A DNA stretch of 64,000 nucleotides from Scyliorhinus canicula (GCF_902713615.1 NC_052153.1:66896649-66960648), one strand, 5' to 3'. Counted from the first letter of the stretch, positions 19,039 through 34,659 are shown. The notes: generated by a model not told the origin, from the letters alone. Program-made: numbers and translations.

Positions 19039-19807
19039 TACAGCCATCTAAGGTGGCCACCTGCAAGGACCATGGGAATTATGGCCAACCCAGGACTCAG
19101 ACAGATACAGAGCCTATGTGTATCTGAAACACAGGTGACCAGGCCTGATCGAAACCCCCGCTCGTTTGCATTTTAATGGCCCATTTTCCCAGGACAATAG
19201 AACTCCAATCAAGCAACCGGTACAGCCACAGACTGATCGGTGCCACTCCCCTTACTCAGAAAGCACAAATGCCAAGGTCAATGGCCGTTAAGGACCCGCC
19301 CAGCCACCAAGGCAACCACCCCTTTATTGGCCGAAATCGAAGACAGTGATCAGAGCCCTGTCGTACTATTGGATCCAATGTTAAGGACCGTCCCAAAGAG
19401 CCTGAAATCCCAGAGGGATAAAAGAGGACGCAGCCATGTATTCTGTCTCTTTTGTATCTGGCCTGTGCCAATCCAATCGTAGCAGGAACAGCCAGCCAAG
19501 TTCAAGACCAACAATTTCTACCTGACAGATGAGCCCAGCAGAGACAGAGCCACTTTCTTCTAACCAGCCAAGGGAAATCCAGATAAAGGCCTTATCCATT
19601 TGCACAGTGCCGGTCGCCCTGAAGTTAAGTACAGGTTATTGTAGCTGATAGGTGTAGTTTAACCCGTAGTAGATCGTGTGTTTGCATGTCGAGATAACTC
19701 TTGTGTATGTAAATAAACCACCTTTTGGACTAACTAACTGGTTGTGTGGTCATTTGATCGATATAAGGGAAGGCCTGTGGTTCACCAACATTATGAATAG
19801 AGCAATA
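19039..19807 (+). repeat. 5' LTR of provirus
   Basis: Aligns along its length with 33885-34659; AATAAA near 19712; termini mutated (TA...TA vs TG...CA). Confidence 0.9.
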
Positions 19808-19811
19808 TTAT

Positions 19812-19833
19812 TCGCGACTCTGGTGGGACTCGA
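19812..19833 (+). promoter_or_regulatory. Primer binding site, tRNA-Arg(UCU)-like
   Basis: TCGCGACTCTGGTGGGACTCGA is nearly the complement of the vertebrate tRNA-Arg(TCT) 3' end (expected TGGCGACTCTGG..GGACTCGA). Confidence 0.7.
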
Positions 19834-21311
19834 TTAGAAGTGACTTTGTCACTCTGAGAGATCTCACAAACCTTGAATCCAATTGTGCGAAAGAGAAAGA
19901 ACCACAAGTGCAAGTCCCATATCGACCAAATAACCGAATTTTGGAAGTGTGTACTAACCCACGTGCGTACCTAACAGGAAGAGTAAGGCAAACTCGTTAG
20001 AATTGTGTACAACTATCAAGGGATTGTGAGCCGGAAAATAAATTAAGCCATCTCGCTGTTCAAATCGCTGCTTTATTCCCCTGTCCCAAATTAAAAGTAG
20101 AGCAAGAGATAAGATAATGGCCGCTAAAGCAATGGAAGATTGATGAATCCACAGGAATCCGAGGTTGCAGCGACCAACAGAGCAGAGCAATGACCCATAT
20201 GGGAGGAAGAGTTAAGGAAATATTTAAAGGGGAAAGGATGGCCCCTTTGGTCGAATTTTTGAGCTAATGATGAGTCAGCTCCAGGAAAGATAGGACAAAC
20301 TTGGTGGGAGAACCTAAGCGAGGTCCACAAGAAAAATGTAGGGAAAGTCAGAAAGCCAATGGAAATAGTGTCCTGTTTGGCACAGTTGCGAGACACAGAG
20401 GATGTTGTGAAGATGCTCCGTAGGCAGTTAATTGAAAAGGAAGAAAAGAACGAGGGAAACAGTAACGAAAGCAAGAAGATAATTGAGCAACTCCGGGAAC
20501 AGTTAGCAGCTAAGGACAAGGAAATGGCCGATGTAAAACGTGCACATCAATCTTGTCTAGTTCACCTTAGTAGCTTCCAGACCCAGTAAGATAAAGCCGA
20601 CCAGTCCTGGTAAGAGAGGAAACAGAACAACAGGTCGCCAGCTAACTAGAAAATGCGCAGATTTAAAAAGCAGCTTTGAGAGCGCTCCACAGCTCCACCA
20701 AGAAACAGAGGCAGAGTACCGTTGACCATGCTAAATGCCGACAGAAGATAGAAAAGTTACAGTCGCTACTCTCAGTACAGAATGGCTTCAGGTACACCTT
20801 CAGACAGGATTTAGATGAGGAAGATGCTCCCAATTGGCAAGAATTAAACAAAAGCGCCCAAAGATACGTAGAGGACACGGGAAATCAAAATCAAGCCCCC
20901 CACACCCCAAAAAGAAAAGCACCCGCACCACCGACTGCACAGGCAGCACACACCCCCATTCACAATTCAACCCCCATGAATCCAGTTACCACACAATGCA
21001 AGTGTGGTGGCATGATTAACATAGCTGCCTGCCATTGGTGCAGAACACCGGCTTACCATTGGCCCTGGTCGGTCATGTGCCTCTCGACCGATTGGCTGAG
21101 ACCAGTCATGTGACGGCTCCCCGATTGGTCGAGAGGCTGAGTTAACCCCACCTCCAGGGCAAGGTATAAATACCCAGTACGCCCGGCGGTCGTCCATTTA
21201 CTGTAGTCGACCGCAGGGCTAACATCTAGCTTATTAAAGCCTAACTTTTGTACAGCAACTCGTCTCGCGTTCAATTGATGGTTCATCAATTTAATAAGCT
21301 AGAATTTGAAA

Positions 21312-33150: not shown

Positions 33151-33497
33151 ATGAAGCAAGGACTGCTGACATGCGTTTGGATCATCGCTGGACTTCTGCA
33201 GCTGCGCGCGCAACGGACTGTTTTAATAAACCCCACACCAGACCCGAACACTACCACATAACAGCCACCACCAGCTCGGACACTACACCACACATAAAGA
33301 CAGACATCGAAACCCCCACTTGGTGCGAAAACATTGTTGGATGGAACTCCCATTCATACATAGTAAAGACCCTTCTAGTAATTGTAATAATCTGCAGTAT
33401 CATTCAGACACTCCAACTCCGTAAATGGCGAGCAAAAGCCTCCGGCTCCCCGATATATACAGTCCAATCCCCCTTCTTTGGAATTCAACAAAATTAA
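33151..33497 (+). pseudogene. Putative accessory ORF B: small type I membrane protein (~115 aa, one frameshift) at the env position
   Basis: Acceptor CTCTGCTTGCACCCCCAG ending 33123; ATG 33151 gives MKQGLLTCVWIIAGLLQLRA (signal peptide-like). After a frameshift near 33255 it joins the frame of ORF 33171-33497: T/P-rich ectodomain, TM YIVKTLLVIVIICSIIQTLQL, basic RKWRAK. Confidence 0.6.
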
Positions 33498-33872
33498 ACT
33501 CATGTACCAATCGCTGCGAAAAATAAACCATGTACCTTTTTAACTTTATTAGGATTAAGTAGGAATGTAATGCTGCTGTTTTAAATTTTGTGCTGTATAT
33601 AAGTTCTCTGATATTCACCAGCAGCATGAGAGTAGCTTAGATAGTGTTAGCTAGAGATCAACTGTGCCGATAAATTAAATGTTTTATAATGACCTGAATT
33701 AGAGTGACCATTAGAGATGAATTAATTTATTGATGTATTAATGAAATATTAGGTAAATCGCCTAAACGATAAGATAAAGTAGAGTAAAACCTTGCCTTGA
33801 CCAAGGGTGACCGGTCCACCAAGGATGAACAGGGATCAATAGTGTGATCCACCACGCTTCGTGTTCAGGATC

Positions 33873-33884
33873 AAGAGGACAGAA
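33873..33884 (+). promoter_or_regulatory. Polypurine tract
   Basis: AAGAGGACAGAA immediately before the 3' LTR. Confidence 0.6.
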
Positions 33885-34659
33885 TGTAGCCATCTAAGAT
33901 GGCCACCTGCAAAGGACCATGGGAATTATGGCCATCCCAGGACTCAGACAGATACAGATCCTATGTGTATCTGAAACAAAGATAACCAGTTCTGATCGCA
34001 ACCCCCGCTCGTTTGCATTTTAATGGCCCATTTTCCCAGGACAGTAGAACTCCAATCAAGCAACTGGTACAGCCACAGATTGATCAGCGCCACCCCCCTT
34101 ACTCATAAAGCCCAACTGCCAAGATCAATGACCACTAAGGGCCCGCCCAGCCACCAAGGCACCTGCCTCTTTATTGGCCGAAATCGAAGACAGTGAGCAG
34201 AGCCCTGTCGAACTATTGGGTCCAAGGTTAAGGACCGCTCAAAAGAGCGCAAAATCCCAGAGGGATAAAAGAGGACGCAGCCACGTGTTCTGTCTCTTTT
34301 GGATCCGGCCTGTGCCAACCCAATTGTAGCAGGAACAGCCTGCCAAGTTCAAGACTAGCGATCGGTACCTGACAGATGAGCCCAGCAGAGACAGAGCCAC
34401 TTTCTTCTAACCAGCCAAGTGAAATCCAGGTAAGGGTCTTATCCATTTGCACAGTGCCGGTCGCCCTGAAGTTAGGTATAGGTTATTGTAGGTGTAGTGA
34501 TAGGTGTAGTTTAACTCGTAGTAGATATTGTGTTTGCATGTCGAGATAACTCTTGTGCATTTAAATAAACCATCTTCTGAATAAACTAACTGGTTGTGTG
34601 GTCATTTGATCGATATAAGGGAAGGCTTGAGGTTCACCAACATTATTAATAGAGCAACA
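33885..34659 (+). repeat. 3' LTR of provirus
   Basis: TGTAGCC...AGCAACA; homologous to 19039-19807. Confidence 0.9.

Follow-up and report, generated by a model that had tools for sequence, protein, structure and literature searches.

A decayed provirus from a high-copy endogenous retrovirus family of Scyliorhinus canicula and the three env lengths of its relatives

Anatomy of the provirus and its family

The stretch of Scyliorhinus canicula DNA analysed here (the window; 64,000 nucleotides) contains a decayed provirus with the following features:

19039..34659, + strand, decayed provirus, a broken copy with four later inserts inside
19039..19807, + strand, 5' LTR, defined by alignment of the LTR pair
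19812..19829, + strand, primer-binding site (PBS) for tRNA-Arg(TCT), complementary to the 3' end of tRNA gene L106
20117..21002, + strand, N-terminal part of gag with coiled coil, containing stops and frameshifts; omega about 0.19 (shared variants)
21003..25871, + strand, nested Gypsy LTR retrotransposon, a later insert with 286-nt LTRs and a 5-bp target duplication
25872..26853, + strand, gag capsid region with a single CCHC knuckle; omega about 0.22
about 26585-26773, SINE insert inside the gag capsid region
26854..26859, + strand, in-frame UGA-CGG between gag and pro, predicted read-through site
26857..28250, + strand, protease and reverse transcriptase (RT), broken; assigned from Pfam and trees
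28251..28572, + strand, tether (degenerate Gypsy-type RNase H); PF17917 E=8e-15 and residue census
28573..29644, + strand, fragment of a LINE, which we take to be CR1-like, and a SINE, in place of about 570 nt of pol
29645..29735, + strand, C-terminal remnant of a second, cellular-type RNase H that is complete in siblings
29763..31538, + strand, integrase (H2C2, core, SH3-like module) with a low-complexity tail
31984..33086, + strand, ORF-A, about 160 aa, interrupted at 32363-32978; no significant selection
32363-32978, GC-rich insert with inverted ends, interrupting ORF-A
33151..33497, + strand, ORF-B, a 115-aa env remnant, broken in the window copy
33885..34659, + strand, 3' LTR, with a purine-rich tract just before it

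The two LTRs are identical at 694 of 764 aligned positions (19042-19805 against 33888-34657), with a K2P distance of 0.098. The 4-bp target duplication matches at three of its four positions in the window and is exact in two of the three siblings examined. The four later inserts were recognised by mapping 40 sibling loci onto the window. The nested Gypsy element is missing at that site from the siblings spanning it, and its own LTRs differ by a K2P of 0.033. The pol stretch lost to the LINE and SINE block comprises the end of the tether and most of the second RNase H. The tRNA-derived SINE is present in two copies that are 95% alike (26585-26773 and 29475-29644), one of which is miscalled by ARAGORN as tRNA-Phe. 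The GC-rich insert, with outer limits at 32359-32980, has short terminal inverted repeats, is MITE-like and occurs as a single copy within the window.

An insert-free full-length sibling measures about 9.5 kb, and an integrase query found at least 150 copies of the family in the 4.2-Gb host genome. The LTR pairs of eight of nine siblings differ by 0.073-0.100 and the remaining pair by 0.034. The age depends on the substitution rate, being about 20 My at 2.2e-9 and about 100 My at 0.5e-9, the rate assumed in the accessible part of PMC10699275. The 2.4-kb 3' region is present family-wide, in 11-27 of 40 siblings per segment (median 20-26 of 40 in a second mapping). Among indexed sequencing runs, it also occurs in runs of two organisms, none of them an RNA run. 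When four raw RNA runs were mapped on one sibling, coverage of either strand was low and lay mostly in the LTRs, and splice-like joints were absent from the interior of the element.

The PBS matches the intron-bearing tRNA-Arg(TCT) gene L106 of the same genome at 17 of 18 positions, in a count by eye that includes the CCA end, and the tRNA-Arg-like PBS of the original prediction is thus borne out. Several other loci (L097, L098, L100, L101, L103, L104 and L108) contain, in place of the 18-nt PBS, a stretch of about 50 nt that is the complement of spliced tRNA-Arg(TCT) with its CCA end and that stops near position 27 of the tRNA. Three of these, L098, L103 and L108, have LTR or leader sequence in common with the window, in which the long complement is present only in broken form (19812-19890). 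It may be a relic of plus-strand synthesis that continued into the primer tRNA. The PBS sequences of siblings differ between subfamilies more than simple decay would give, which suggests switches of primer tRNA.

Gag-Pol and its placement within Retroviridae

Gag of a natural open sibling copy contains a heptad-rich region, detected by a crude heptad scan, and one CCHC knuckle, in agreement with the coiled-coil Gag predicted from the window. The stop codon between gag and pro was read in the 31 siblings that could be mapped out of 40 fetched: it is TGA in 28 of them, and the context is TGACGG in 19. UGA-CGG is listed as a type II read-through context in the part of PMC13517186 consulted. The conserved in-frame UGA is consistent with the earlier proposal that pol is expressed by read-through. 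Stem-loop potential 3' of the UGA is inconsistent (z -1.45, -2.44 and +0.26).

The motifs IEVSIT and TEH lie within 28251-28559, which matches PF17917/PF17919. The first catalytic slot of the tether is Ala or Thr in all 29 family copies in which it was read, the second is His in 30 of 32, and the third is Glu in 27 of 30. The claim that this domain lacks catalytic Asp therefore holds, and the loss of the Gypsy-type residues is family-wide. The 40-aa remnant of the second RNase H (29645-29735) does not match Pfam or PDB on its own, because its N-terminal part was replaced by the LINE and SINE insert. The complete domain of siblings matches PF00075 (E=4e-18) and human RNase H1 (E=4.5e-8), which confirms the second, retroviral-type RNase H that had been proposed from the remnant. 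Its last catalytic position is degenerate in the window copy and intact in 30 of 37 siblings. Beyond the SH3-like module, the integrase has a Pro/Ser/Asp-rich tail of about 190 aa (30960-31538) with two conserved Trp motifs, which is under weak purifying selection (omega about 0.6, p=0.002). Codon-phase periodicity is present in RT and integrase and absent from the ORF-A and ORF-B segments, where indels blur the test. For variants common to at least three copies, the omega of Gag, RT and the second RNase H is 0.15-0.22, whereas private variants are about neutral. These proteins were under strong purifying selection during the replication of the family.

In the RT tree of 43 rows, the family forms a group (100/100) inside Retroviridae (100/99), together with endogenous retrovirus (ERV) proteins of frog, coelacanth and turtle (83/89), and outside the Loki, foamy, gamma/epsilon and Gypsy groups. 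The trees were built from single natural reading frames only. A first RT tree, calculated in quick mode, had 66 rows; the 23 rows left out of the careful tree were near-duplicates, two long delta-type sequences, one mis-cut sequence and the frameshifted inner Gypsy. Unnamed rows were labelled from their motifs, and Loki rows by motif likeness to the available portion of the PMC7947760 supplement. The tree of RT with tether again separates Loki at 100/99 and has a basal polytomy. A Gypsy (Metaviridae) origin is ruled out, as the element does not have a single active RNase H after RT and its RT lies outside the Gypsy clades.

Among named proteins, the nearest relatives are the Pol proteins of ERVs from frog, coelacanth and turtle, which carry the annotations "NYNRIN-like" or "Gypsy integrase-like" (P0001-P0004, P0008 and P0034). 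The frog and coelacanth RTs are 49-58% identical to that of the family, and the domain order is alike. Searched with phmmer, a sibling RT scored 283-316 bits against the frog and coelacanth proteins, 226 against SnRV, 155 against foamy, 136-153 against Loki-type, 110 against MLV and 91 against Ty3. SnRV outscored foamy, Loki, ERV-L and epsilon-type RTs. PMC4131045 mentions a frog element that is SnRV-like and has no env. The frog gene model P0001 ends (residues 1214-1291) in a hydrophobic stretch with a weak Ig-domain match (E=0.012), which could be a 3' gene of the frog ERV or a gene-model fusion.

SnRV (here L077/P0038, recognised because it matches the row for SnRV in the available part of the PMC7947760 supplement) resembles the family in its coiled-coil Gag, single CCHC, read-through of an in-frame stop (predicted for the family), and tether with RNase H, and its RT is 44% identical. 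The Gag features and read-through of SnRV are described in the consulted parts of PMC2717909 and PMC13517186. SnRV differs from the family in its stop context, UAG-GGC as opposed to UGA-CGG, in a Gag that is not alignable past the knuckle, in a 1042-aa Env that has no significant match to that of the family, and in having, between the RNase H and integrase of its Pol, an additional domain some 200 aa long that the family lacks. The PBS of SnRV is of the tRNA-Arg type. By eye, P0021 and P0022 seem to have a similar stretch of about 200 aa before RT.

An AU test did not reject a group of the family, its kin and SnRV (p=0.32). The position of SnRV is unsupported in the free RT and RT with tether trees, where it falls in a polytomy; it groups with epsilon-types in the RNase H tree, which lacks resolution (23 rows; 9 rows not located), and is near foamy in the integrase tree. 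There is no supported clade of SnRV and the family, and "SnRV-like" is therefore used here as a grade label. In this sense the family likely belongs among the SnRV-like (class III, "Huo") lineages, whose relatives occur across vertebrates according to the accessible parts of PMC6001957, PMC4977317 and 10.1101/2021.11.23.469661. Lineage I of CmiERV from the elephant shark is an SnRV-clustering element of about 9.6 kb from a cartilaginous fish (PMC4422223, part available). By eye, it shares with the family UGA after gag, a single CCHC, LPQGFHNSP, the EVA and CERHLLA tether signature and the second RNase H. It differs in its LTR and PBS and in a gamma-type Env (CX6CC, by eye), and the available part of PMC4422223 describes no env-reduction series for it.

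All gag-pol hallmarks of the family have been described for SnRV and its endogenous relatives. They are therefore hallmarks of a known group, and the gag-pol build is not new. By its RT sequence, the family groups with canonical retroviruses; it also has the tether with second RNase H and, between pol and the 3' LTR, an env-like ORF that is long in related proviruses and a remnant in the window. The original prediction of a cartilaginous-fish lineage near the base of retroviruses stands in that the element is of retrovirus type and falls in the unresolved basal part of Retroviridae; it does not stand as a sister lineage of the Loki or Odin type.

Three lengths of env on related pol genes

ORF-A is open in most copies of the window's subfamily, and searches found no homologue and no significant constraint. 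ORF-B encodes a signal-like N-terminus, a stalk that is rich in Ser and Thr and contains an N-glycan sequon, a Trp-rich membrane-proximal stretch, a transmembrane segment (TM) and a basic tail. Twelve natural open copies of the 115-aa form were found among 70 loci scanned. In a more divergent subfamily, the form is 218 aa long and includes an additional domain, about 105 aa in length, that contains Cys residues. A profile search of 1.84 billion proteins with this Cys domain gave six matches: one Scyliorhinus canicula gene model, four close relatives and one bacterial repeat protein, which was judged spurious.

In P0137, a protein found by this profile search, the Cys domain runs on into different sequence, for which the host genome gave 118 matches. 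At 20 loci of this kind, the Cys domain forms the beginning of an ORF about 650 aa long, which is broken in every locus examined. The order along this long Env is signal, Cys domain, basic cleavage-like site, small-residue hydrophobic run, helical region, Cys-rich region, second helical region, and finally a TM with tail, both homologous to their counterparts in ORF-B. A loosened R-x-K-R+G pattern occurs at the same place in 12 of the 20 loci. In four of the 20, RT, tether, RNase H and integrase lie upstream in order and are 49-78% identical to the family. The 218-aa form matches a long form at each of the latter's ends, the N-terminus (47% over 138 aa, E=2e-45) and the C-terminus (29% over 106 aa, E=2e-12), and the 115-aa form likewise aligns with the 218-aa form at either end. 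Three env lengths are thus shown on related pol genes: about 650 aa, 218 aa with the core deleted, and 115 aa with the Cys domain also deleted. Because of the homology to both ends of the long ORF, ORF-B is an env with its middle removed, once in the 218-aa form and twice in the 115-aa form. The view that accessory genes stand in place of env accordingly fails for the last ORF; ORF-A may still be such a gene.

The long Env has no match to Pfam, PDB, gamma-type Env or SnRV Env, and the short and medium forms have none to Pfam or PDB. The fusion glycoprotein profile PF00523 found no match in seven broken long-env pieces, and no CX6CC motif was found in six medium-form copies. Pairwise matches of long-Env pieces to SnRV Env were non-significant, and a search of the host genome for the SnRV Env TM region found nothing. 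Atlas matches for the Cys domain were all under 0.9. The likeness of the long Env to the fusion-glycoprotein-type Env described for Loki is one of layout only, because both structure predictions are poor (AlphaFold2 pLDDT 34 for the Cys domain and 33 for a long-Env piece, too low for fold comparison). Thirty host gamma-type env ORFs matched one of 61 family stretches, there upstream of RT. The same genome contains 78 PF00429 matches (L204-L233) that come from other ERVs, whose env is gamma-type and in some is open for more than 560 aa; the integrase ends of these ERVs are about 30% like those of the family.

Selection, alternatives and the reduction of env

The 218-aa form has an omega of 0.52 (p=5e-6, shared variants) and its Cys domain one of 0.46 (p=1e-4), compared with 1.0-1.1 in a downstream non-coding control. 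The signal could come in part from splits older than the deletion. For the 115-aa form of the window, the omega of 0.72 is not significant (p=0.085), and that of its TM and tail is 1.1; this form is probably a fading, decaying remnant.

We consider it probable that the window holds a dead copy of a high-copy ERV family with RT inside Retroviridae, likely SnRV-like, whose env was cut in at least two internal deletions and which likely spread in germ cells. That the family is instead a cartilaginous-fish lokiretrovirus or an Odin-type sister lineage of retroviruses is extremely improbable. Lokiretroviruses and Odin share with it the dual RNase H and a coiled-coil Gag (BHIKHARI), according to the available parts of PMC7947760 and PMC9040795. 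The long Env has a layout similar to that described for Loki, with signal, RxKR-like site, hydrophobic run, helical region and TM, and the report of Loki in none of six chondrichthyan genomes leaves a gap for such a lineage. However, the RT motif of the family is LPQGFHNSP, as in SnRV, whereas the Loki RTs in the consulted part of the PMC7947760 supplement nearly all have PFGY (one has PFGL). The trees place the two apart at 100/99, the AU test rejected a group of the family, its kin and Loki (p=0.002), and the fusion glycoprotein profile finds no match in seven broken env pieces. A link to Loki confined to Env may exist. Odin is set aside indirectly, through the separation from Loki and the presence of env. 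Identity with a foamy-like ERV, namely the catshark ERV-Spuma.0-Sca, is very improbable too, even though the best PDB match of the RT is foamy RT and a foamy-like family has been published for the likely host (PMC10699275, part available). By its description there, ERV-Spuma.0-Sca has an unlike layout, with an 866-nt LTR, a 753-aa Gag and a separate pol. Foamy Gag lacks the CCHC knuckle that the Gag of the family has, and grouping with foamy was rejected (AU p=0.024) in a test containing mammalian foamy rows only.

The nature of ORF-B admits two other readings. One is that ORF-B is a captured accessory gene unrelated to env: SnRV has accessory ORFs, and the short and medium forms match neither Pfam nor PDB. 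This is very improbable, given that the two ends of ORF-B are homologous to those of the env-like ORF of 650 aa, which occupies the corresponding place in related proviruses. A reading that we regard as possible, and do not favour, is that the short forms have no protein function and are simply left over in copies that are non-autonomous or hitch-hiking, with cis-acting RNA signals responsible for their retention. Neither the 115-aa form nor ORF-A is significantly constrained, internal deletions affect many of the medium-form loci, and the 3' ORF of SnRV is reported to act in cis (PMC12193657). On the other hand, the synonymous excess of the 218-aa form is confined to its coding frame, the other two frames having an omega of 1.3, and both deletions left signal, stalk and TM in frame.

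Under the preferred reading of an env reduced by internal deletions, the replication of the family can be outlined from established retrovirology. Gag-Pol would be produced by stop read-through, tRNA-Arg would prime reverse transcription, and the second RNase H would remove the RNA. Env probably shortened from the long form to 218 aa and then to 115 aa. Loss of the fusion core would have ended independent cell entry, after which spread would have been intracellular or helper-dependent. The search candidates (172 for the long-form junction, 545 for the Cys domain and about 5000-5600 for the stalk and TM end), which are not copy numbers, fit an expansion of the shorter env forms. The 218-aa product is predicted to be glycosylated and displayed at the surface, with the N-terminal Cys domain and the anchor retained and no ability to fuse membranes. 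Selection on a form without a predicted fusion core suggests a job other than cell entry. By analogy with the truncated Env proteins of mammalian ERVs, that job would most likely be occupation or down-regulation of the entry receptor (superinfection interference), an assignment we hold at somewhat below even confidence. More speculatively, and with a clear preference against accepting the whole at present, the family may be a canonical retrovirus lineage with an undescribed, possibly F-glycoprotein-like Env and a new Cys domain, in three stages of reduction, whose mini-Env was selected as a receptor-blocking or cell-surface factor during germline spread.

The literature on lokiretroviruses, shark and catshark ERVs, SnRV and env-less fish ERVs yielded no description of the family or of its env series; an entry in a repeat library (Repbase, Dfam) may exist. 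The one catshark ERV paper found describes, in its accessible part, a foamy-clade element of another layout (PMC10699275). Since the long Env matches no gamma-type Env, no SnRV Env and no entry of Pfam or PDB, the basal retroviruses, of which few have been sampled, gain a further type of envelope. Env loss has reportedly been proposed as the switch from an infectious retrovirus to a high-copy retrotransposon. Here, intermediate states of env coexist in a single genome in many copies, so that sequence alone is enough to measure in which order parts were lost, how copy number changed and how selection acted on each remnant.
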